Source: Terriglobia bacterium (GTDB lineage Bacteria > Acidobacteriota > Terriglobia > 20CM-2-55-15). Taken from it: a stretch of 64,000 bases of DNA. Below, in pieces: positions 1 to 9,599 of the stretch; within the stretch, counting starts at the first letter, position 1; every line of letters begins with the position of its first letter. Made by a program: the position numbers and the translations under genes. Location of the stretch: the NCBI GenBank assembly GCA_965198225.1, contig CBDAOY010000003.1, forward strand, positions 64,001 to 128,000. The letters run 5' to 3'. The notes beneath the pieces are model-generated. The model saw nothing but the letters and a program-made list of their open reading frames with translations. It was not told where the DNA came from and did no database searches.

Positions 1-150
1 CAACTTCGCGGCGAGTTCGACGGCTTCGGTGCCCGACGAGGCTTCGCCGACTACTTCCATGTCCGGCTCCTCCTCCAGAATCCGTTTCAGTCCCTGCCTC
101 AAGATGGCGTGATCGTCAGCGATTACCAGTTTTATTTTTTCGTTTGTCAT
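1..150 (-). CDS. NarL/LuxR-family response regulator, 5' part only (runs off the window edge)
   Basis: Manual translation from ATG at 150: MTNEKIKLVIADDHAILRQGLKRILEEEPDMEVVGEASSGTEAVELAAKL; close paralogue of 3705..4355; overlaps the kinase stop. Confidence 0.92.
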   Translation of the reverse strand, partial: MTNEKIKLVIADDHAILRQGLKRILEEEPDMEVVGEASSGTEAVELAAKL

Positions 151-1228
151 CTTCTTCACTCGTTCCCCTGGGGATAATCATTTCGACCGTGGTCCCCTGA
201 CCCGACGCCGTACCGACCCGGAAGGATCCGCCGACGTCATTCATCCGCTGCCGGATGGTCCAGAAGCCAGAGCTCATCAATTTCCCACTTGTATCAAAAT
301 AGCGGCGGGGATCGAATCCCCTTCCGTTGTCCTCTACCGCGACCCGAACCTCCGAATCGGAGAAACTCACTGCGATGTCTACCGCAGACGCCCCGGAATG
401 CCGGATTGCATTGCTGATCGCTTCCTGACAACACCGATATAGCGCCATCGTCGGCGACTCGTCAAGCGGGTACGGTTTGCCATGAGTCCTGCAGCGCACA
501 GCCACGTCCGAGGAGCTCGATACCTGTCCGGCCAGTTCCTCCAACGCGGGGACAAAACCCAGCGTGTCGAGGATCCTCGGGTAGAGCGTGTGCGATAGAT
601 CGCGTATCTTCGACAGCAGGCTACCGACTTCGGCGCGCGCCTCTGCCAGTTCTTCGACGGCCTTTGCCGCGCTCCCGTTGCGCTTCATCTCGCTCTCGAG
701 CAGCTTGAGCTTCAGCTTCAACGCGGCAATCGTCTGACCGACGTCGTCGTGCAGCTCGTGAGTGATCCGGCGACGTTCTTCATCCCGTGCACGCAGCGTC
801 TCCCGTACGAGAACTGTTTCCGACACGGTGTTCTTCTGGGCGCGACGGAGGGCCGCGTGCATCGTCCGAGCCGCCGCGATCTGGGGCGCAAGCAGTTCCA
901 GAATCCAGCCGTGATCTTCCGACGCGGGGCTCGTCGAGACAAAGCCGAACTGTTGGTCTCCGTTGCCGAACGACACGGTCTGGGCGGCCGGTGAAGGAGC
1001 GGGCCATTCCCCGAGCTCGAATTCCCGGATCCGGCGTCCCGTGGCATACCATTCCTTCCACTCGGACGCGGATCGGTAGACCACTCGCAGCTCCTTGGCC
1101 GGCGTCAGCTTCCGGACAATCTTCATTGTTTCCGCCACGACCGACCGCATGTCCTTGGCCTGCGTGATGGTTCGTCCGAATCGGCTGATCAGGCTGACGT
1201 CTGATTTGGAGATGTCCATTCCGTTCAA
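116..1228 (-). CDS. Soluble HisKA_3 (NarX/UhpB-type) sensor histidine kinase, copy A (start TTG 1228 or ATG 1219)
   Basis: H-box EERRRITHELHDDVGQ, N-box QEAISNAIRHS, G1 VEDNGRGF, C-terminal GQGTTV; no transmembrane segment visible. Confidence 0.92.
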   Translation of the reverse strand: MNGMDISKSDVSLISRFGRTITQAKDMRSVVAETMKIVRKLTPAKELRVVYRSASEWKEWYATGRRIREFELGEWPAPSPAAQTVSFGNGDQQFGFVSTSPASEDHGWILELLAPQIAAARTMHAALRRAQKNTVSETVLVRETLRARDEERRRITHELHDDVGQTIAALKLKLKLLESEMKRNGSAAKAVEELAEARAEVGSLLSKIRDLSHTLYPRILDTLGFVPALEELAGQVSSSSDVAVRCRTHGKPYPLDESPTMALYRCCQEAISNAIRHSGASAVDIAVSFSDSEVRVAVEDNGRGFDPRRYFDTSGKLMSSGFWTIRQRMNDVGGSFRVGTASGQGTTVEMIIPRGTSEEDDKRKNKTGNR

Positions 1229-2854
1229 TTAGTGCTTCTTTCCTAAAGCGTTCAACAGATTGATGCGTCCTTTGCCCAGGAGTTTTTCAAACTCCGGGTT
1301 CAGTCCGTCGATCGAATCTGCGGTCACTATAATCGTGCGTGCGGCTGTGTTGGCCCTCCCACCCAGGGACACCAGCAGTGCGACCGACCCACTGACGAGC
1401 GGTGCACTGAAAGACGTCCCAGAAGCCCTCGCATAGAGACCTCCCGGAAACGTCGTGACAACCTCGTCCCCGGGTGCGGTTACCGAAATATTTTTTCCGA
1501 AGTTCGAGAAGTCGGCCAGCCGGTCCCCGAGATCGGTCGCCGCGACTGCGATGACGGTCGGGTAGGACGCCGGGTAGACATCGCTGGCATCTTCGGCGTT
1601 GTTTCCGGCGGACGCGACGAGAACAATGCCGTCGGACCAGGCCTTCTGCACCACCCGCCCGAAAGCTTCGGAATCCTGGCCGATCGAGAAACTCATGTTG
1701 ATGACGTCTACTTCCTGATCGATTGCCGCGTACACGGCAGTCATCGCTAGAAACAGCGTGGACTGACCCTGGGAGTCGAATGCGCGGATCGGCACCAGTT
1801 GCGCCTCGGGCGCGACCGCGTGAAGGAGCCCGGCGACCAGCGTGCCGTGTCCCAGGCGGTCGAACATGCCGTTACCGAACAGGGACATGGTCGACTGGTT
1901 TACGTGGAAGAACTGGAGCTGTTCCCAGAACAGGGACATGGTCGACTGGTCCAGGGTGAACTGCTGCATCTCCTCCCAGAACAGGGACATAGTCGACTGG
2001 TCCAGCGTGCCCGCCAGCAATTGCTCCCAGAACAGGGACATGGTCGATTGATCCAGGTTGAGCCGTTGGAGCTCTTCCCAGAACAGGGACATGGTCGACT
2101 GGTCCAGCGTACCCGCACGCAGCTGCTCCCAGAACAGGGACATGGTCGATTGGTCCAGGCCGAGCCTCAGCAATTGCTCCCAGAACAGAGACATCGTCGA
2201 CATGTCGATCGAGCTGTTCTTCAGAGCCCGTACGAGATCTTCAAAGAGAGACATCGTGGACTGATCGATGCCGCCGAACTCCGAGACCGTCCCCCCGCCC
2301 AGCAGGTTAACGCCGGGTTCCAGCCAGGTCCGAATCGCCGGATGGTCCAGATCGACGCCGGTGTCGATGAACGCGATGCGCGTCCCCGCACCCGTCGTAA
2401 TGTCACGTGTGTCGGAGGCGTGAATTACATCCAGCCCAATCTGCTCTGCGTAGTGTTCGGGTACTTCCGTTCCAAAGAAATAGGTGGGCGAACCCTCTCC
2501 GAACAGCGACATCACGCTCTGGAAGAGCGACATCGTGCTCTGGTCCAGATCGATTTCGCCGTCTGAGCCCGTTTTCTCCCGGTCCATCCGAATTATCTTG
2601 TTCTCTTCGGCGTCGATGACTGCCTTTTCCTTCTTCAGCTTTTTCTTGACGCTCTTCTTGTTCTCGACTTCGACCAGGTATATCGGTTCGTCGCCGATCT
2701 GTCCGAGAACCCTGCCCTTGTATCTTTTCAGGATCTTGTCTATCGACTTTCCGTCCTTGAGAGTCACGATCAACGTCCGGGTGCCCGCAGCTACAGCCAC
2801 GCCGGGCAGCAGCCAGCCGAGGAGGACCAGAACGAGGATGATGCGTCGATGCAT
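1229..2854 (-). CDS. Exported S8 (subtilisin-like) serine protease with internal DQSTMSLFW repeat array, copy A
   Basis: Sec-like signal peptide; triad motifs IDTG, GHGT, SGTSFSAP; oxyanion motif SAGN; prodomain-like N-terminus. Confidence 0.93.
   Translation of the reverse strand: MHRRIILVLVLLGWLLPGVAVAAGTRTLIVTLKDGKSIDKILKRYKGRVLGQIGDEPIYLVEVENKKSVKKKLKKEKAVIDAEENKIIRMDREKTGSDGEIDLDQSTMSLFQSVMSLFGEGSPTYFFGTEVPEHYAEQIGLDVIHASDTRDITTGAGTRIAFIDTGVDLDHPAIRTWLEPGVNLLGGGTVSEFGGIDQSTMSLFEDLVRALKNSSIDMSTMSLFWEQLLRLGLDQSTMSLFWEQLRAGTLDQSTMSLFWEELQRLNLDQSTMSLFWEQLLAGTLDQSTMSLFWEEMQQFTLDQSTMSLFWEQLQFFHVNQSTMSLFGNGMFDRLGHGTLVAGLLHAVAPEAQLVPIRAFDSQGQSTLFLAMTAVYAAIDQEVDVINMSFSIGQDSEAFGRVVQKAWSDGIVLVASAGNNAEDASDVYPASYPTVIAVAATDLGDRLADFSNFGKNISVTAPGDEVVTTFPGGLYARASGTSFSAPLVSGSVALLVSLGGRANTAARTIIVTADSIDGLNPEFEKLLGKGRINLLNALGKKH
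1877..2270. repeat. Coding tandem repeat, 51-bp period, 8 units (S8 copy A)
   Basis: GAACAGGGACATGGTCGACTGG-like units start at 1877, 1928, 1979, 2030, 2081, 2132, 2183 and 2243; minus strand encodes (L/I/V)(D/N)(Q/M)STMSLF(W). Confidence 0.97.
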
Positions 2855-2869
2855 CGTTTCTAGGCCTCC

Positions 2870-3292
2870 TTATGCCTGTGCTTGCATGGAATAGGCGAGT
2901 CGCCAGTCGCGAGGATCGTTATGGGACAATCCTCGAACGACAAAACGGCGATCGTCGAGCGAGATCGTCAGATCGAAGTCCCCGTCGGGCACGGTGTGAA
3001 ACATGAACTCTCCGATGGGATTCGTCCGCGTCAACGTCTTCTGCCGGTCCGTTTCGATCACGACCGGGAGGTTGGAGACATTACCCAGGGAGGCGGTTTC
3101 CGGCATCACCTGACCTCCGACATGGAGGCACGGGCTGCCGTCCGACTGCTTGACGAGAAGGTCGAGGATGACCCCCCCGCCTTCATAGATCAGGTGCCGA
3201 TCCTCGGCAGAGGCATCCCGGATCAGGGGCACCTCTTCAAACCAGGAATCAAACAGGAGCGAGCCACGAATTTCGACAACGTCATGGTTCAT
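2870..3292 (-). CDS. Small CHAT-associated cytoplasmic protein, probable beta-sandwich (carboxypeptidase-regulatory-like) fold, copy A
   Basis: ATG at 3292 preceded by GAGGAGG; motifs LLFDSW, RHLIYEGGGVILDL, TRTNPIGEFMF; paralogue of 7280..7696. Confidence 0.8.
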   Translation of the reverse strand: MNHDVVEIRGSLLFDSWFEEVPLIRDASAEDRHLIYEGGGVILDLLVKQSDGSPCLHVGGQVMPETASLGNVSNLPVVIETDRQKTLTRTNPIGEFMFHTVPDGDFDLTISLDDRRFVVRGLSHNDPRDWRLAYSMQAQA

Positions 3293-3430
3293 AATCAGTT
3301 CCTCCTCGTCTTCGGACAAAAGTTCCGAACAAACCAACAAAAGTACGGATTCGCAACGTGGCCCGAGTGTTCTTGTTGGCGCCAGTGCAGCATGCTGGGG
3401 CCGGAGCCTTCGGGCCGTCGTTATAGATCG
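3282..3430 (-). pseudogene. Decayed remnant of the 3' end of a CHAT gene
   Basis: Minus strand CGGGCCACGTTGCGAATCCGTACTTTTG...TTCGGAACTTTTGTCCGAAGACGAGGAGGAACTGATTATGAACCATGA aligns with the CHAT end CGCGCCACGTTTCCGCATCCGTACTTCTG...TTCGGAACTTTCGTCCGAAAACACGGAGGAACTCGTTATGCAACATGA; contains indels. Confidence 0.8.
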
Positions 3431-3704
3431 GTGTCCGTATTCTATGCTAAAGACCTAAGATGTTGGGATAGGAAACCTTCTCAGGCGAGGTGTAGTCAGG
3501 GGGGCTTGAAGAGTGTGATTTCCCCGGTGGCTGGCCCGAATCAAAGAGCCTCGCGGGCCCCTCGGCGGAGGATTGGGGAGAATGAGGTCGGATCGGAACC
3601 CGGCAGACACAGCGGATCAAGACGGATCGAGCGAACGGGTGCGACGCGCCACAACCCGCCGACCGACGCCGCGCGCGACCGACTCTTGGCGGGCGCGACC
3701 CGAC

Positions 3705-4355
3705 TCACACCGTGTTGACCAGTCCTTCGCGGATCGCGTACCGAATCAACTCGCCGATCGTCCGAATGCGAAGCTTGTCCATGATGTGCTGCCGATGCGT
3801 ATGGATCGTTTTGGCGCTCACGAACAGCGCATCGGCGACCTCGCTCGACGACTTGCCCTCGGCAAGGAGGTAAAACACTTCCTTTTCGCGTTTAGTGAGT
3901 GCTTCCAGGCCTCTGCGGCTTTCGTCCTCAACTGACCCGAGATTGGCGAGCGTTTTCGTCACTTTGGAGGAGAAGACGGACCCGCCCGAGTGAATCGTTC
4001 GGATCGCCGTGACGAGTTCGTTGTCGAGCGAATCTTTCAGCAGGTACCCGGCAGCGCCGGCGGTGACGGCGCTGGCGATGACCTGCCTTTCATCGTGGAC
4101 GGTCAGCATCAAGACTTTGGAGCCGCCTTCCGTGGCGATTTCCCGGGTGCTTTCGATCCCGTTCTGCCCGGGCATCGATATGTCCATGATGACGATATCC
4201 GGATGCAGTTCCCCGGCCAGTGCGACCGCCTCGGACCCGGTGGAAGCTTCGCCCACGACTTCCATGTCCTGTTCTTCTTCCAGTATTCGTCTCAGCCCCT
4301 GTCTCAGTATTGCGTGATCATCCGCGATCAACAGTCGTATCTTTCCGTTCGTCAT
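3705..4355 (-). CDS. NarL/LuxR-family response regulator, copy B
   Basis: Receiver motifs IADDH, MDISMP, GYLLK; HTH LTKREKEV...SAKTIHTHRQHIMDKL. Confidence 0.96.
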   Translation of the reverse strand: MTNGKIRLLIADDHAILRQGLRRILEEEQDMEVVGEASTGSEAVALAGELHPDIVIMDISMPGQNGIESTREIATEGGSKVLMLTVHDERQVIASAVTAGAAGYLLKDSLDNELVTAIRTIHSGGSVFSSKVTKTLANLGSVEDESRRGLEALTKREKEVFYLLAEGKSSSEVADALFVSAKTIHTHRQHIMDKLRIRTIGELIRYAIREGLVNTV

Positions 4356-5514
4356 CCTTTTCTCCCGTTGTTAAGGGCACAATCATTTCAACCGTGGTTC
4401 CCTGGCCCGACGCCGTGCCGAGCCGGAAAGATCCGCCGGTGTCGCTCATCCGCTGGCGGATCGTCCAGAATCCCGAGCTCATCAACTTCCCACTGGCATC
4501 GTAGAAACGACGAGGGTCGAACCCGCATCCATTGTCTTCGACCGATACTCTTACCTCCTGTTCCGCAAAATAGACGTGTATGGTCGCTCTGGAGGCGCCG
4601 GAATGCCTGATCGCGTTGCTGAGCGCCTCCTGACAACATCGGTACAATGCGAGGGTCGTGGGTTCATCCAGGGGTCTTGGGGTGCCGCGCACGCTGCAAC
4701 GGGCTCTGATGCCCGAAGGCCCCGACACCTGGTTCGCCAGTTCCTCCAGCGCGGGGACGAAACCCAGAGTGTCGAGGATCCTCGGATACAGCGTGTGAGA
4801 CAGGTTCCGAACCCTTGCCAGCAACTGGCCCACGTTCTCGCGGGCTTCGGCCAGCTCCTCGATCGTTGTGGCCGAAAAACCGTTCTGTGCGATCCGATTC
4901 TCCAACAGCTTGAGCTTCAGCTTGAGTGTCGCGATCATCTGCCCCACGTCATCGTGCAGGTCGTGGGTAATCCGTCGCCGCTCTGCGTCACGAGCGCGCA
5001 GAGTTTCACGAACCAGTTCCATCTCCGAGATTGCATGCTTCTGGGCTCGAAGCAGGGCCGCGCGGAGGGTCAGTACGGCGGAAATCTGCGGAGCCATCAA
5101 CTCCAGGACCCACGTCGTGTCCTCGGATGTCGGGCTGATCGAAACAAAACCGTATTGCTCGCTTCCGGTTTCGAATGCGACGGTCTGTGCGGCCGGCGAC
5201 GGGGACGGCCATTCCGCCTGATCGTAGGAACGGATGCTGCGTCCGAGGGCGTGCCACTCCTTCCAGGCTCCCGCCACCGCGTACACGACGCGCAGCTCGA
5301 CGGCGGGCGTCAGCTTCCGGACGATCTTCAGGGCCTCGGCGACGACCTTTCGGACGTCCTGGGTTTGCGTGATCGTCCGTCCGAACCGCCCGATCAGGCT
5401 GACGTCAGCGGGCGAAATCCCCGTCGTATCCGCAGCCTGTTTCGATTTCCTGCTCTCCCCGCCTGCAGCGAGCGGCTTAGTTATTTTTTTTCTTTTTGCC
5501 TTTGGCTTTGCCAT
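4318..5514 (-). CDS. Soluble HisKA_3 histidine kinase, copy B (start uncertain; nearest ATG at 5514 overlaps the S8 tail)
   Basis: H-box ERRRITHDLHDDVGQ, N-box QEALSNAIRHS, G1 VEDNGCGF; paralogue of 116..1228. Confidence 0.9.
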   Translation of the reverse strand: MAKPKAKRKKITKPLAAGGESRKSKQAADTTGISPADVSLIGRFGRTITQTQDVRKVVAEALKIVRKLTPAVELRVVYAVAGAWKEWHALGRSIRSYDQAEWPSPSPAAQTVAFETGSEQYGFVSISPTSEDTTWVLELMAPQISAVLTLRAALLRAQKHAISEMELVRETLRARDAERRRITHDLHDDVGQMIATLKLKLKLLENRIAQNGFSATTIEELAEARENVGQLLARVRNLSHTLYPRILDTLGFVPALEELANQVSGPSGIRARCSVRGTPRPLDEPTTLALYRCCQEALSNAIRHSGASRATIHVYFAEQEVRVSVEDNGCGFDPRRFYDASGKLMSSGFWTIRQRMSDTGGSFRLGTASGQGTTVEMIVPLTTGEKDDERKDTTVDRG

Positions 5515-7246
5515 TCCCGTTTCCGTTGGAATTCCCGGTACTGCCTGTGTTCGAGCCAGTTGTATCGCTGTCATCCAACGCCTCAGTCAGGTTGATGCGT
5601 CCCCAGCCCAGCTCGTTCCAGAGAGCCGGGTTCAACGATGACGATTCGATGGAGTCCGCCGTGTGTAGGATAGTGTGTCTGGCGGATATATTGTTCTTAC
5701 CCACGGACATGAGCAACGCCAGCCCGGCGCTCACCATCGGCGCACTGAACGATGTGCCGGACGCTCTGGCATACAGGCCTCCAGGGAACGTGGTTGCCAC
5801 GCCAACCCCCGGAGCCAGGACGTCGACGAAACCGTAGTTCGAGAACGACGCGAGGTGGTCTTCGAAATCCGTCGAGGCGACCGCGATCACCTTGTTGTGT
5901 TGCGCCGGATAAATGTCGTTGTTTATGTAGGCGGCGTCGTTTCCGATCGATGCGACCAGTGCGACTCCTTGCGACCATGCATCGTTCAGTGCCCGGTTCA
6001 TGGCTTTGGATTCGGTACCGATCGAAAAACTCATGTTGATGACGTCGACGTCCAGGGCGAGGGCGGCATAGACGGCGGCGACGGCGAAGAACAGCGTCGA
6101 CCGACCCTGGGAGTCGAATGCGCGGATCGGCACCAGTTGGGCTTCGGGCGCGACCGCGTGCAGGAGCCCGGCGACCAGCGTGCCGTGTCCCAGGCGGTCG
6201 AACATGCCGTTACCGAACAGGGACATCGTCGACTGGTTCACGTAGAAGAACTCGAGCTGTTCCCAGAACAGGGACATGGTCGACTGGTCCAGGGTGAACT
6301 GCTGCATCTCTTCCCAGAACAGGGACATGACCGACTGGTCCACGTCGAGCCTCTGCAGGACTTCCCAGAAAAGCGACATGGTCGACTGGTCCAGAGTACC
6401 TGCGAACAGTTGCTCCCAGAACAGGGACATGGTCGATTGATCCAGGTTGAGTCTCTGGAGCTCTTCCCAGAACAGGGACATGGTCGACTGGTCCAGGGCG
6501 CCAGCCGCGAGCCGCTCCCAGAACAGCGACATGACGGACTGATCCAGGCCAGCCCTCAGCAATTGATCCCAGAACAGCGACATCGTCGACATGTCGATCG
6601 AGCTGTTCTTCAGGGCCCGCACGAGATCTTCAAAGAGCGACATCGTAGACTGGTCGATGCTGCCGTACTCCGAGGCCGACCCCCCACCCAGCAGGTTGAC
6701 GCCGGGCTCCAGCCAGGTCCGAATCGCCGGATGGTCCAGATCGACGCCGGTGTCGATGAACGCGATGCGCGTCCCCGCACCCGTCGTAATGTCACGCGTG
6801 TCGGACGCGTGAATCACATCCAGCGCAATCTGCTCGGCGTAGTGTTCAGGCACTTCCGTCCCGAAGAAATCGGTAGGGGATCCTTCTCCGAATAACGACA
6901 TCACGCTCTGGAACAGCGACATCGTGCTCTGATCCAGATCGAGAAACCCACCGGGTATCGATGGAGGCTTGCTCTCCAGCGATACGAGGCCGTTCGGTTC
7001 CACATCGGTGACCCACTTGTCGCCGGCCAGGTCCTCGATCGGGTCTTCGTCCGTCCCGTCGGTAAGAACCAGGAAAACCGGCTCCTGGCCCATCTGTCCG
7101 AGAACCTGGAGATCGTATTTCGCCTTGACCTGGTTGATCTTGTTTGCGCTCTTGAGTGTTACGATCAGCTCCAGCCCGCCGGCTGAGGCTGCGGTCGGGA
7201 GCAGGAGCCCCGCGATCAGTAAGGTGAGAATTATGCATCTTCGCAT
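5477..7246 (-). CDS. Exported S8 serine protease with DQSTMSLFW repeat array, copy B
   Basis: Signal peptide; IDTG, GHGT and SGTSFSAP motifs; Gly/Asn/Lys-rich tail. Confidence 0.93.
   Translation of the reverse strand: MRRCIILTLLIAGLLLPTAASAGGLELIVTLKSANKINQVKAKYDLQVLGQMGQEPVFLVLTDGTDEDPIEDLAGDKWVTDVEPNGLVSLESKPPSIPGGFLDLDQSTMSLFQSVMSLFGEGSPTDFFGTEVPEHYAEQIALDVIHASDTRDITTGAGTRIAFIDTGVDLDHPAIRTWLEPGVNLLGGGSASEYGSIDQSTMSLFEDLVRALKNSSIDMSTMSLFWDQLLRAGLDQSVMSLFWERLAAGALDQSTMSLFWEELQRLNLDQSTMSLFWEQLFAGTLDQSTMSLFWEVLQRLDVDQSVMSLFWEEMQQFTLDQSTMSLFWEQLEFFYVNQSTMSLFGNGMFDRLGHGTLVAGLLHAVAPEAQLVPIRAFDSQGRSTLFFAVAAVYAALALDVDVINMSFSIGTESKAMNRALNDAWSQGVALVASIGNDAAYINNDIYPAQHNKVIAVASTDFEDHLASFSNYGFVDVLAPGVGVATTFPGGLYARASGTSFSAPMVSAGLALLMSVGKNNISARHTILHTADSIESSSLNPALWNELGWGRINLTEALDDSDTTGSNTGSTGNSNGNGNGKAKGKKKKNN
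6215..6659. repeat. Coding tandem repeat, 51-bp period, 9 units (S8 copy B)
   Basis: Units start at 6215, 6266, 6317, 6368, 6419, 6470, 6521, 6572 and 6632. Confidence 0.97.
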
Positions 7247-7279
7247 TTCTTGAGTTCTCCATCCATGGAAAGAAATCGG

Positions 7280-7696
7280 TTAACAGTCAGTCGAACACGC
7301 TAATTGCCAGTTTCGGGGATCGCTCCGCGAGAGCCCTCGCACCACAAACCGCCGACCCTCCAGCAGGATCGTGAGATCGAAGTCCACGTTCGAGACCGAA
7401 TGAAACATGAATTCTCCGATCGGATTCGTCCGCGTCGCCGTCTTCTTCCTTCGAGTCTCGATCACGACCGGGAGGTTTGCGACGTCCCCCATGGAATCCG
7501 TGTCGGGCAGCACCTGGCCCCCGACGTGAAGGCAGGGGTCTCCGTTCGTGCGTTTGACCAGAAGATCGAGGATGACTCCGCCGCCCTCGTAGATCAGATG
7601 CCGGTCCTCGGGGGACGGGTTCCGGACCCGGGGCGTTTCTTCGAACCAGGAATCGAACAAAAGTGAGCCCCGAATTTCGACAACATCATGTTGCAT
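7280..7696 (-). CDS. Small CHAT-associated beta-sandwich protein, copy B
   Basis: ATG at 7696 (MQHDVVEIRGSLLFDSW) with GGAGG RBS; overlaps the CHAT stop by 11 nt. Confidence 0.8.
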   Translation of the reverse strand: MQHDVVEIRGSLLFDSWFEETPRVRNPSPEDRHLIYEGGGVILDLLVKRTNGDPCLHVGGQVLPDTDSMGDVANLPVVIETRRKKTATRTNPIGEFMFHSVSNVDFDLTILLEGRRFVVRGLSRSDPRNWQLACSTDC

Positions 7697-9599
7697 AACG
7701 AGTTCCTCCGTGTTTTCGGACGAAAGTTCCGAATCCGCCCCAGAAGTACGGATGCGGAAACGTGGCGCGGATCGTCGCCGCGGCGCCATGAGTGGCCGCA
7801 GGCGCGTTCGTGCCGTCGTAAAGTTGATAGAACTGTCTGGAAAAAGATTGCGCCGCCTCATCCCGAATTGCCCAGAACGCCGAGACGATCGTGTGCGCAC
7901 CGGACAGGTAGAAAGCTCTCATCAGCCCCTGCCACTCGTCGCCGGCCGAGATCACCCGGCGTGCGGTATGACAGCCGGTGACGACCAGGGTGCCCGCCCG
8001 GAACTGCATGTCCATCAGTTCCCGGCTCGTCAGGCGACCCTCACTGGTTTCCAGCCAGGAAAGCGCCCCCTGGACCGTGTCGATGCCCGCATGTCCTGCG
8101 ACGTGGACCAACTCCCGATATTGCTTCAAGTGGTGGCCGAGCTCATCAGGAGACGGATTGATGAGCACGACCGCGTCATCGAAGTGTGCCGCGGACTGTT
8201 CCACTTCCGTGACGATGTCTTCCTTTTTGTCCGTGGAAAAAGCGACGAACAGCGGCGGTTCCGCTGGTTCCTCCTCCCGGACCGGGGATGCATACAGCGT
8301 CGCGCTCGGACTGTAGCCGATGGAATGATCCTCGCATAAGAACGATGCGCCATCGTGGAGGGCGTGGAATGGAACGCCGTGCAGGAATCCATGAGGCACG
8401 ACGGTGACGTGCTTGCCCACTTTGTCACGAACGGGCTCGACCAGAGCCTGGTAGAGCTGCTGCAGATGTTCCCTCGCCGTCCGCTCCAGGTGATGAATGA
8501 CCTTACCCAGCCGCTCGAACTTGACACTGCAGCTTGCGATGTGCCGCTCGAGATGGCTCGATTCGGACCGGATCGAGGGGCCCACGCCGGGTCGATGGAC
8601 GCACTCGGTGGTTCCTCGATTGACGATGAAGATGTACAGATCCTTTCCGGAGATGAAGTACTCGAGGATGGTTTCGTCGAGGTCCAGACGTTGGGCCAAC
8701 CCCTCGGATAAGACGCCCTCATCGGCGGGAGCCAGCCGCTCCACCAGGACCCGGGAGCGAGCCCGCTCCGAAAGCCGGAATGCATCCGGAACCGAAGTGG
8801 ACGCGGCGGTCGGCATCATTTGCGTGTAAACGTTCTCTCGATCGGTCATGAAGGCCATCTTGAGGTCGTCCGAGCCGATCCGATGCCAGAGGGAATCCAG
8901 CATGGATTCGGCTTTCCCCAGGAATGGAACACTCCGCGTCTCATCGATCTCGGCAAGCGACGCCCCTAATTCGTAGTAGGCGTGGAATTGCATCCATTCC
9001 GATCGACTCTCCTCTGCAAGCTTCGCGGCGGATTCGAAAGAGTCGATGGCGCACGCTCGATCCCCGGTTTTTCGTTGGATTCGCCCGATGACGATGTCGG
9101 CCATAGCTAACCGGTCGGGCAGGGAACGCTCTTCCAGCAGCGCCCGGGCCGCCGTCGCCTCTCGCAACGCCTGAGCCTCCCCCCGCTCGCCCCTGAACAG
9201 GGCCGCTTGCACCTTTGAAACGGCCGTCCAGACGCTGTTGCCTTCAGACTCGAAGCGTTTGACGGCTTCTCCCAGCAGCCGATCGACTTCTTCGTTCTGG
9301 CCCATCCGAAGCGATGCGACCGCTTCGAAGAGCAACGTCTTGCCGACTTCGTAGTTCAGCCCGATCTTCATACCCAGGGCTCGGGCTCGGCGTGCCGATC
9401 GGATCGCTTCCGAAAGATCGCCGATCTCGAGCAGCATCTCGGCCTCATCGAGCCAGCACAGGCTAACGTGACGGTCGTCGGCCTCGCGCTCGAACTCCTG
9501 CTTCAAGTCTGACATGCCGCGCAGAGCTTGACCGCTGTCTCCTCTCAGGTAATCCAGGTAGGTGCGGTTGTACCGGCTCTGCAGCTCGATCGCGTGCAT
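7686..9599 (-). CDS. TPR-CHAT domain protease (caspase/HetF-like), probably 5'-truncated
   Basis: Motifs VPHGFLHGVPFHAL, His VHVAGHA, Cys VTGCHT, IVSAFWAIRD, HPYFWGGF; helical TPR-like N-terminal half; TPR-like coding continues in frame upstream of the ATG to about 9708. Confidence 0.9.
   Translation of the reverse strand: MHAIELQSRYNRTYLDYLRGDSGQALRGMSDLKQEFEREADDRHVSLCWLDEAEMLLEIGDLSEAIRSARRARALGMKIGLNYEVGKTLLFEAVASLRMGQNEEVDRLLGEAVKRFESEGNSVWTAVSKVQAALFRGERGEAQALREATAARALLEERSLPDRLAMADIVIGRIQRKTGDRACAIDSFESAAKLAEESRSEWMQFHAYYELGASLAEIDETRSVPFLGKAESMLDSLWHRIGSDDLKMAFMTDRENVYTQMMPTAASTSVPDAFRLSERARSRVLVERLAPADEGVLSEGLAQRLDLDETILEYFISGKDLYIFIVNRGTTECVHRPGVGPSIRSESSHLERHIASCSVKFERLGKVIHHLERTAREHLQQLYQALVEPVRDKVGKHVTVVPHGFLHGVPFHALHDGASFLCEDHSIGYSPSATLYASPVREEEPAEPPLFVAFSTDKKEDIVTEVEQSAAHFDDAVVLINPSPDELGHHLKQYRELVHVAGHAGIDTVQGALSWLETSEGRLTSRELMDMQFRAGTLVVTGCHTARRVISAGDEWQGLMRAFYLSGAHTIVSAFWAIRDEAAQSFSRQFYQLYDGTNAPAATHGAAATIRATFPHPYFWGGFGTFVRKHGGTRYAT

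Follow-up and report, generated by a model that had tools for sequence, protein, structure and literature searches.

Two genes at the left end of the 64,000-nucleotide stretch analysed here (the window: positions 64,001 to 128,000 of contig CBDAOY010000003.1 of a Terriglobia bacterium, a soil acidobacterium) raise the question of why a secreted protease should carry many copies of one short peptide inside its own catalytic domain. Both genes encode subtilases of the S8 family, called copy A and copy B below, and in each an array of 17-residue units with the core DQSTMSLF lies between the catalytic Asp and His. To judge from its relatives, the array represents an enlargement, restricted to one clade, of a motif cassette that most members of a large subtilase family share. 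Its core is maintained by selection on the peptide and not by DNA homogenisation. Tentatively, and with somewhat less than an even chance of being right, we read the motif copies as cleavage sites recognised by the enzyme itself, the excised peptides being the inward signal of the gene module to which the subtilase belongs.

Peptidase_S8 (PF00082) matches copy A with 129.8 bits and copy B with 123 bits (cut-off 21.8), and His336, Asn418 and Ser481 of copy A are invariant across 36 aligned sequences. A scan of both proteins with the regular expression [DN][QM]S[TV]MSLF placed eight cores in copy A (starting at residues 197, 217, 234, 251, 268, 285, 302 and 319) and nine in copy B (198, 218, 235, 252, 269, 286, 303, 320 and 337), all between Asp and His, as counted in the initial annotation. 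The proteins are 70% identical, and their arrays differ by exactly one unit of 17 residues. Tandem Repeats Finder reported a period of 51 at 1877-2201 in copy A (6.4 copies, score 338) and at 6215-6548 in copy B (6.5 copies, score 284). The same core recurs in both proteins as DQSTMSLFQSVMSLF, near the junction of prodomain and catalytic domain. This junction copy exists as had been claimed, but it sits in a linker of about 35 residues past the prodomain fold and therefore need not be the exact scissile site. Translated in six frames, the 6.4 Mb genome contains 21 matches to [QMW]S[TV]MSLF, and all 21 fall within the two subtilase genes, so the motif is not a matter of chance; a third member of the subtilase family was not found in this genome.

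The description of the core as almost invariant is valid for eight residues only, because the Trp is missing from the first and last units and the linker of the first unit is longer (12 residues, spacing 20). In the clade as a whole (167 units from 42 proteins) the core positions are held by D (88%), Q (82%), S (100%), T or V (58 and 39%), M (97%), S (86%), L (99%) and F (99%), and the linker reads WExLxxLxL, with W in 79%, E in 71% and the three Leu in 77, 53 and 76% of units.

Contigs from three independent studies tile copy A, mostly at 99% or more identity, and none crosses the array, so that the count of exactly eight units rests on the present assembly. Pieces 1697-1917 and 2617-2848 of copy A occur in one RNA library, which is not proof of transcription. 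The plus-strand open reading frames (ORFs) at 1799-2566 and 5675-6895 were rejected as genes; their translations, of the type EQGHGRLVQ, mirror the repeat. In a related genome (G080, locus L061, 7200-8815) the subtilase is split over two frames at about residue 197, where the array starts, which suggests a frameshift or an assembly error within the repeat.

The codons of the arrays were compared in all 136 pairs of the 17 units. Core codons showed 331 synonymous and 90 non-synonymous differences (0.30 versus 0.083 per codon and pair), in agreement with the synonymous variation seen initially, whereas linker codons showed the opposite, 137 synonymous and 839 non-synonymous differences (0.11 versus 0.69). 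The linkers had been called variable, and their changes are indeed mostly non-synonymous, but five positions (W9, E10, L12, L15 and L17 of the unit) are semi-conserved. The copy in the pro-linker differs from the array copies synonymously at 1-6 of 8 codons and non-synonymously at 0-1; its Ser codon is AGC where the array has TCG or TCC. Because of these synonymous differences, gene conversion fails to explain the identity of linker and array. Identical peptide copies with scattered synonymous codons were also found in four other lineages, where the motifs are WSVMSLF, QSVMSLF, QAMASLLD, QSTVAFLD and QSTAAILD. Replacing Q by W takes two base changes, and in the proteins concerned the W is present in every copy, that in the linker included.

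The comparison of cores and unit numbers across homologues, proposed in the initial annotation, showed that both vary by lineage. Among 7999 scored candidates, 593 proteins match copy A at E 1e-5 or better, and an exhaustive profile-free scan with a limit of E 1e-30 yielded 831 clusters at 50% identity. Of 206 family members, 189 have a hydrophobic N-terminus. The catalytic Asp and His were both identifiable in 215 homologues, of which 143 repeat an exact 6-mer between them, as do 69 when only the 112 representatives of 50% clusters are counted. Counts of the commonest exact 6-mer in this segment range from 1 to 11, which bears out the supposed variability in copy number, and the median Asp-His distance is 86 residues in proteins with a repeated 6-mer and 61 in the rest. 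The copies occupy the surface loop that immediately precedes the catalytic His and, in most members, also the linker between prodomain and core. Typical relatives, of about 440 residues, read ...LSQQMASLLDQQMASLLDKRFLFVLNQAMASLLD...FGHGT, and more distant ones ...DQSTAAILDQSTAAILDGSQAVVLNQSTAAILDQSTAAILD...; repeats at the same site include QSTAAILD and QQMASLLD. Short relatives have 2-5 units of 8 residues, the clade of the window 8-13 units of 17. In a tree of the catalytic core, made without insert and linker, the proteins with 17-residue units form one clade (29 rows, support 99) beside a clade with 8-residue units (76 rows), and the array of the window is thus best seen as the enlargement of an older cassette. 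An array-only search of 5.8 billion proteins (80-256 residues) for a stand-alone repeat protein gave one match, a fragment of such a subtilase, and so no separate repeat protein in this size range.

The motifs of pro-linker and insert change together across the family. In the 47 residues upstream of the catalytic core, 111 of 180 proteins carry an 8-mer that matches their own insert at 7-8 of 8 positions (89 at 8/8). With the upstream stretch shuffled the number was 0 of 180, and for linkers and inserts paired from different proteins it was 150 of 2687. The match was seen with more than 30 distinctly different cores, among them QQMASLLD, QDMMALLD, QSMAALLD, NYTAYLLD, AETLFLLD, QSLIWLF, WSVMSLF, QSTVHILD, QSVAVILE and NPNTVAVLN. 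The motif changes counted on the tree number 60, an overcount because the 8-mer windows stand in differing registers. Such co-change fits a single recognition site used at both places.

Several relatives show further variation in the cassette. A layout that recurs in the short-unit arrays of many relatives (for instance L047 6011-7435 and L055 9195-10637) has two or three motif copies followed by a spacer of about 8 residues and two more copies; the spacer ends in two hydrophobic residues and Asn (...AVLN, ...FVLN) and resembles a degenerate unit. At L135 (6916-9892) tandem subtilase genes follow one anti-sigma-like gene, with QSSVAVLD three times in one protein and QSAVAVLD three times in the other, so that one residue differs throughout every copy of each; in the tandem subtilases of L047-L049 both proteins have the same motif. 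In the metagenomic protein P0238 (677 residues) a zinc anti-sigma-like protein appears to run on, without a stop, into a subtilase that has QSTAAILD repeats and a hydrophobic stretch resembling a signal. A genuine fusion of this kind would anchor an anti-sigma factor in the membrane with a protease outside, but an artefact of sequencing or gene calling is also possible.

Structure prediction of the insert, which had also been proposed, gave no confident fold. AlphaFold2 was run with alignments on copy A and on the short relative P0076. The model of copy A has a mean predicted local distance difference test score (pLDDT) of 70.9, with 83-96 for prodomain and catalytic core, 29-54 for the array, and values below 50 at residues 92-120, 212-250 and 269-332. 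Each 17-residue unit is modelled as one helix of 12 residues, and the packing is not confident. Residues 25-89 are predicted as beta-alpha-beta-beta-alpha-beta (pLDDT 83-90), as in an inhibitor-I9-like prodomain; a Fervidolysin_NPro-like prodomain match (25 bits, cut-off 21) was obtained in copy A only. For P0076 the mean pLDDT is 86.5, with values below 50 at residues 207-227 and about 60 in the linker. The models argue against a stable structural domain, low confidence not being proof of disorder. A sequence search of solved structures returned generic subtilisins only, with the insert unaligned and present in none, and Foldseek with the P0076 model found unautoprocessed pro-subtilisin E with IS1 (E 9e-26) and pro-Tk-subtilisin (E 6e-24).

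The left 9.6 kb of the window form a single string of minus-strand genes in two cassettes. The first runs TPR-CHAT, small protein B, subtilase B, histidine kinase B and a LuxR-type response regulator; the second and shorter one runs small protein A, subtilase A and histidine kinase A, with a regulator that runs off the left end of the window (1-150 in the window, 11503-12000 in L005). CHAT (PF12770) matches the TPR-CHAT protein with 120.8 bits (cut-off 24), and its His503 and Cys543 are invariant in 10 orthologues, the dyad being assigned by position in the CHAT match and not by structure. We compared 25 loci of 12-20 kb from 24 genomes of the class, that of the window included (L006 duplicates L043 and was not counted), and a CHAT gene lies within the fetched stretch in 24 of them. 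The layout of the window, CHAT (637 residues), small protein, subtilase, kinase and regulator, occurs in nine loci, and in one further locus without the kinase. Another 14 loci contain an extracytoplasmic function (ECF) sigma gene, recognised by Sigma70_r2/r4 alone, a TPR-CHAT protein of 960 residues, a zinc anti-sigma-like protein of 200-233 residues, and the subtilase. The zinc protein has an N-terminal H-x3-C-x2-C motif and a C-terminal half homologous to the small protein of the window; in turn, the small proteins of the window align only to this C-terminal domain (21-27% identity). The H-x3-C-x2-C motif, present in the relatives of 209-233 residues from L066-L068, is not found in them, and Pfam has no match for either the small proteins or their zinc-binding relatives. 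In 10 of the 14 loci the ECF gene adjoins the gene of a family-5 peptide-binding protein, and nine of the 14 also have oligopeptide-type transporter genes, two for permeases and two for ATPases.

An independent sample of 73 metagenome loci, found via the anti-sigma-like protein only, gave a similar picture. Where 900 bases or more were available, the gene next downstream is the subtilase in 53 of 55 loci. Of 53 subtilase ORFs parsed in this sample, two of them unrelated second subtilases, 44 have a 6-mer repeat in the Asp-His segment and 27 a match between linker and insert. CHAT was found upstream in 28 of 42 loci, the ECF gene in 12 of 17, and the binding protein in 10 of 13 loci with room for it; a kinase is downstream in 1 of 26. 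Membrane segments were found in none of the CHAT, small, kinase, ECF and anti-sigma-like proteins, and hydrophobic N-termini in the subtilase and the peptide-binding protein, from which the cellular location of each part of the module is predicted.

The second cassette of the window (116-3340) is without a CHAT gene of its own, unlike the first (3705-9599). The related loci L042 and L043 have two complete cassettes each, both with CHAT, and their subtilase pairs differ consistently by one motif residue, DQSTMSLF versus DQSVMSLF in nearly all copies. L042 (5985-6975), L043 (4367-5369) and L061 (10754-11761) contain in addition a third, orphan pair that lacks both subtilase and kinase: a paralogue of the small protein (about 55% identical) with a LuxR-type regulator behind it. 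L137, one of the metagenome loci without CHAT, has a YflT-like protein, a CHASE3-GAF histidine kinase and a sigma-54 activator as its neighbours; such loci suggest that the module exists in a variant whose input or output differs.

The identical copies, the lineage-specific motif, the match with the pro-linker and the unfolded loop beside the active-site His lead us to favour self-cut peptide sites. The enzyme would be exported via its signal peptide, fold on its prodomain and then cut its own motif, most plausibly after two hydrophobic residues (after ...MSLF in the window and after IL or LL of ...ILD or ...LLD in the relatives). Cutting would free the prodomain and excise the loop as a set of near-identical peptides, in the window of about 17 residues (W-E-x-L-x-x-x-x-L-D-Q-S-T-M-S-L-F). 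Since the subtilase is the sole predicted extracytoplasmic part of the module and the peptide importer the sole evident entry, we infer that the signal would run from outside to inside. Gene order in the relatives supports a destination for a released peptide, in the form of the importer, the putatively cytoplasmic TPR-CHAT protein, the anti-sigma-like protein and the ECF factor. There the adjacent oligopeptide ABC importer would take up the peptides, the TPR-CHAT protease would sense them in the cytoplasm and cut the soluble zinc anti-sigma-like protein, and the ECF sigma factor would be freed. The role assigned to TPR-CHAT has precedents in the cutting of a sigma-factor inhibitor in systems of the Csx29/Csx30 type and in the TPR-CHAT sensor of DdvA. 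The signal might measure cell density, successful secretion or the conditions under which the protease matures. In the lineage of the window a soluble histidine kinase and a LuxR-type regulator would replace the sigma factor and the N-terminal domain of the anti-sigma protein. That all of this amounts to a self-contained circuit, in which a secreted protease is the precursor of its own pheromone or messenger, a dedicated permease imports it, TPR-CHAT senses it and a soluble anti-sigma factor is destroyed, is somewhat less probable than the reading above. If it does, signals from outside would reach ECF sigma factors without a transmembrane anti-sigma factor, by a route that is widespread in Acidobacteriota and other groups and in which each lineage has its own peptide 'dialect'.

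Several points weigh against this proposal. Cleavage between Asp and His might damage the catalytic domain, and the proposed Phe-Trp bond falls mid-helix in each modelled unit, although with low confidence. A 7/8 linker copy is missing from 69 of the 180 members, including the importer-linked L055-L060, L067 and L069, and several importer-linked members have repeats in the insert only; the linker copy is thus not essential to the module. CHAT is absent upstream in 14 of the 42 metagenome loci. An importer beside a secreted protease could serve nutrition alone. Neither an importer nor an ECF gene lies beside the cassette of the window lineage, whose genome has only distant family-5 binding proteins (25-28% identity). 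With no adjacent importer and a kinase lacking a membrane segment, the inward route and the last signalling steps are least secure in this lineage.

The main rival is a purely autoinhibitory array, a tethered pseudosubstrate or internal propeptide whose motif copies fill the enzyme's own cleft, so that the enzyme stays inactive or slow as long as they are neither cut nor displaced. Copy number would then set the delay, the pieces would have no signalling role, and the importer of the relatives would take up products of digestion. The tails of subtilase prodomains can remain in the cleft as inhibitors, and in subtilisins the segment before the catalytic His leads into the active site, directly before which the insert stands here. 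The match of linker and insert and the flexible, unfolded prediction for the insert would be accounted for as well. One or two copies are enough for a latch, however, which leaves up to 11-13 near-identical copies unexplained, as is the tight linkage to wholly cytoplasmic partners; we consider this explanation unlikely, if the strongest of the alternatives. Should the pieces only latch, the protease would still control itself in a new way, the number of its pseudosubstrates being tunable.

Less probable still is a docking or assembly element kept in the mature enzyme, its amphipathic helices binding to one another or to a partner, the membrane or a polymeric substrate. The helix predicted for every unit and the semi-conserved linker positions, which exceed the needs of a spacer, speak for such an element. 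Yet neither of the two models packs confidently, the array matches no known repeat family, 2-5 units of 8 residues in the short relatives are too little for a domain, and the copy in the pro-linker finds no explanation. We give very little credence to the array as bait, cut by foreign or host-cell proteases so that its peptides report an attack to the cell: this shares the arguments from gene context with self-cleavage, and an exposed, unfolded loop is an easy target, but the matching copy in the enzyme's own linker indicates self-recognition, and bait for unrelated proteases does not require wide divergence of the motif between lineages. A tandem repeat that expanded neutrally in a surface loop tolerant of it, unequal crossing-over keeping the units uniform, would fit the regular DNA period of 51 and the different copy numbers of close relatives, and is equally improbable given the opposite codon patterns of core and linkers, a non-tandem pro-linker copy identical in protein and not in DNA, and the persistence of the feature across a family of 831 clusters.

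The features of the two cassettes are collected in the table. The longest ORF of kinase B overlaps the final 98 bases of subtilase B (5477-5574), and its true start is probably further downstream. The tail of copy B consists of a Ser/Thr/Gly/Asn-rich stretch and a Lys-rich end (...GKAKGKKKKNN); several homologues have such a tail, copy A has none, and it is possibly a surface-binding element. The mycosin model of type VII secretion (TIGR03921) gave 144.8 bits, below its cut-off of 278.75, and the Csx29 model (NF041237) gave 49.6 bits with the CHAT protein of the window, below its cut-off of 300. Curated families beyond S8 and CHAT gave sub-threshold matches only. The defence models of PADLOC found a generic 'subtilase' for copy A (65 bits) and nothing for CHAT, small protein and kinase.

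Table. Features of the two subtilase cassettes, with positions in the window.
Feature	Residues or size	Position	Strand	Basis or remark
Histidine kinase A		116-1228	minus	70% identical to kinase B
Subtilase copy A, S8, secreted (predicted)	541	1229-2854	minus	ORF and Peptidase_S8 match
Copy A catalytic Ser	Ser481	1412-1414	minus	
Copy A oxyanion Asn	Asn418	1601-1603	minus	
Copy A catalytic His (HGT)	His336	1847-1849	minus	
Copy A array, 8 units	197-326	1877-2266	minus	between catalytic Asp and His
Copy A catalytic Asp (DTG)	Asp164	2363-2365	minus	
Copy A linker motif DQSTMSLFQSVMSLF	104-118	2501-2545	minus	between prodomain fold and catalytic core
Copy A prodomain	~25-90	2585-2782	minus	
Copy A signal peptide	1-23	2786-2854	minus	hydrophobic N-terminus
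Small protein A	139	2870-3289	minus	paralogue of small protein B (77% identical)
Response regulator		3705-4355	minus	receiver and LuxR/GerE DNA-binding domain
Histidine kinase B		4318-5574	minus	HisKA_3 and HATPase_c; no membrane segment
Subtilase copy B	589	5477-7246	minus	ORF and Peptidase_S8 match
Copy B C-terminal tail		5480-5575	minus	Gly/Asn/Lys-rich
Copy B catalytic Ser	Ser499	5750-5752	minus	
Copy B catalytic His	His354	6185-6187	minus	
Copy B array, 9 units	198-344	6215-6655	minus	between catalytic Asp and His
Copy B catalytic Asp	Asp165	6752-6754	minus	
Copy B linker motif DQSTMSLFQSVMSLF	105-119	6890-6934	minus	
Small protein B	133	7280-7681	minus	no Pfam family
TPR-CHAT caspase-like protease	637	7686-9599	minus	no signal peptide or membrane segment

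Subtilases are well studied, and yet a large environmental family of them holds an undescribed cassette of its own motif in the catalytic domain. Our literature search, which did not extend to supplements (these may hold tables of the ECF54 context), turned up nothing on the insert with its repeats, on how it matches the pro-linker, on the likeness of the small protein to anti-sigma factors or on the link to an importer. If the pieces are released and sensed, the module would represent a new way of making a peptide signal without a separate precursor gene and the first candidate for peptide signalling in Acidobacteriota; free-standing TPR-CHAT proteases would gain a candidate ligand, and an ECF sigma context known from synteny alone would gain a mechanism.

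How does the proposed module compare with known systems? Like pro-subtilisin E and pro-Tk-subtilisin, the proteins consist of a prodomain and a catalytic domain. The junction of pro-subtilisin carries the enzyme's own recognition sequence, and the prodomain of furin has a second, internal site; here a recognition-like motif is repeated up to 13 times within the catalytic domain, between Asp and His. Many near-identical peptide copies between protease sites are known from the yeast alpha-factor precursor processed by Kex2 and from fungal Kex2-processed repeat proteins, and borosin precursors are fused to their own processing enzyme. Those precursors, in contrast, are separate proteins or C-terminal tails, and none is known to lie within the catalytic domain of the protease. 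Tripeptidyl peptidase II is a subtilase with a long insert between the catalytic Asp and His, but this insert is a folded part of the oligomer and not a motif repeat.

In working principle the module would resemble the RNPP systems (Phr/Rap, PapR/PlcR, NprX/NprR), in which an exported precursor is cut by secreted subtilisin-type proteases, taken up by the oligopeptide permease and bound by a cytoplasmic TPR receptor. By analogy, the subtilase, the importer adjacent in the relatives and the TPR-CHAT protease may be candidate counterparts of protease, permease and TPR receptor. RNPP systems belong to Firmicutes, whereas here the precursor would be the protease itself, in diderm Acidobacteriota, and the receptor would be a TPR-CHAT protease instead of a transcription factor or phosphatase.

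For the later steps, two reports provide parallels: in type III-E CRISPR systems the TPR-CHAT protease Csx29 cuts Csx30, a sigma-factor inhibitor (PMC10028731), and in the anti-sigma factor DdvA the sensor is formed by a TPR-CHAT domain (PMC11506125). In both, as in our relatives, TPR-CHAT is genetically coupled to a sigma/anti-sigma pair. In contrast to Csx29, no CRISPR genes are present at the locus and the trigger would be a peptide and not RNA; in contrast to DdvA as described there, the CHAT protein is predicted to be a free cytoplasmic protein outside the anti-sigma factor. The association of subtilase, CHAT and ECF is partly in print, since a review gives carboxypeptidase, subtilase and CHAT-domain proteins as part of the conserved context of ECF54 sigma factors and proposes proteolytic regulation (PMC8999054); these form an actinobacterial group without a clear regulator according to the classification paper (PMC7826278). 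That context concerns Actinobacteria and synteny only, and the repeat insert, an anti-sigma factor and a peptide importer are not mentioned in the available text (PMC8999054). The window's own cassette is without an ECF gene.

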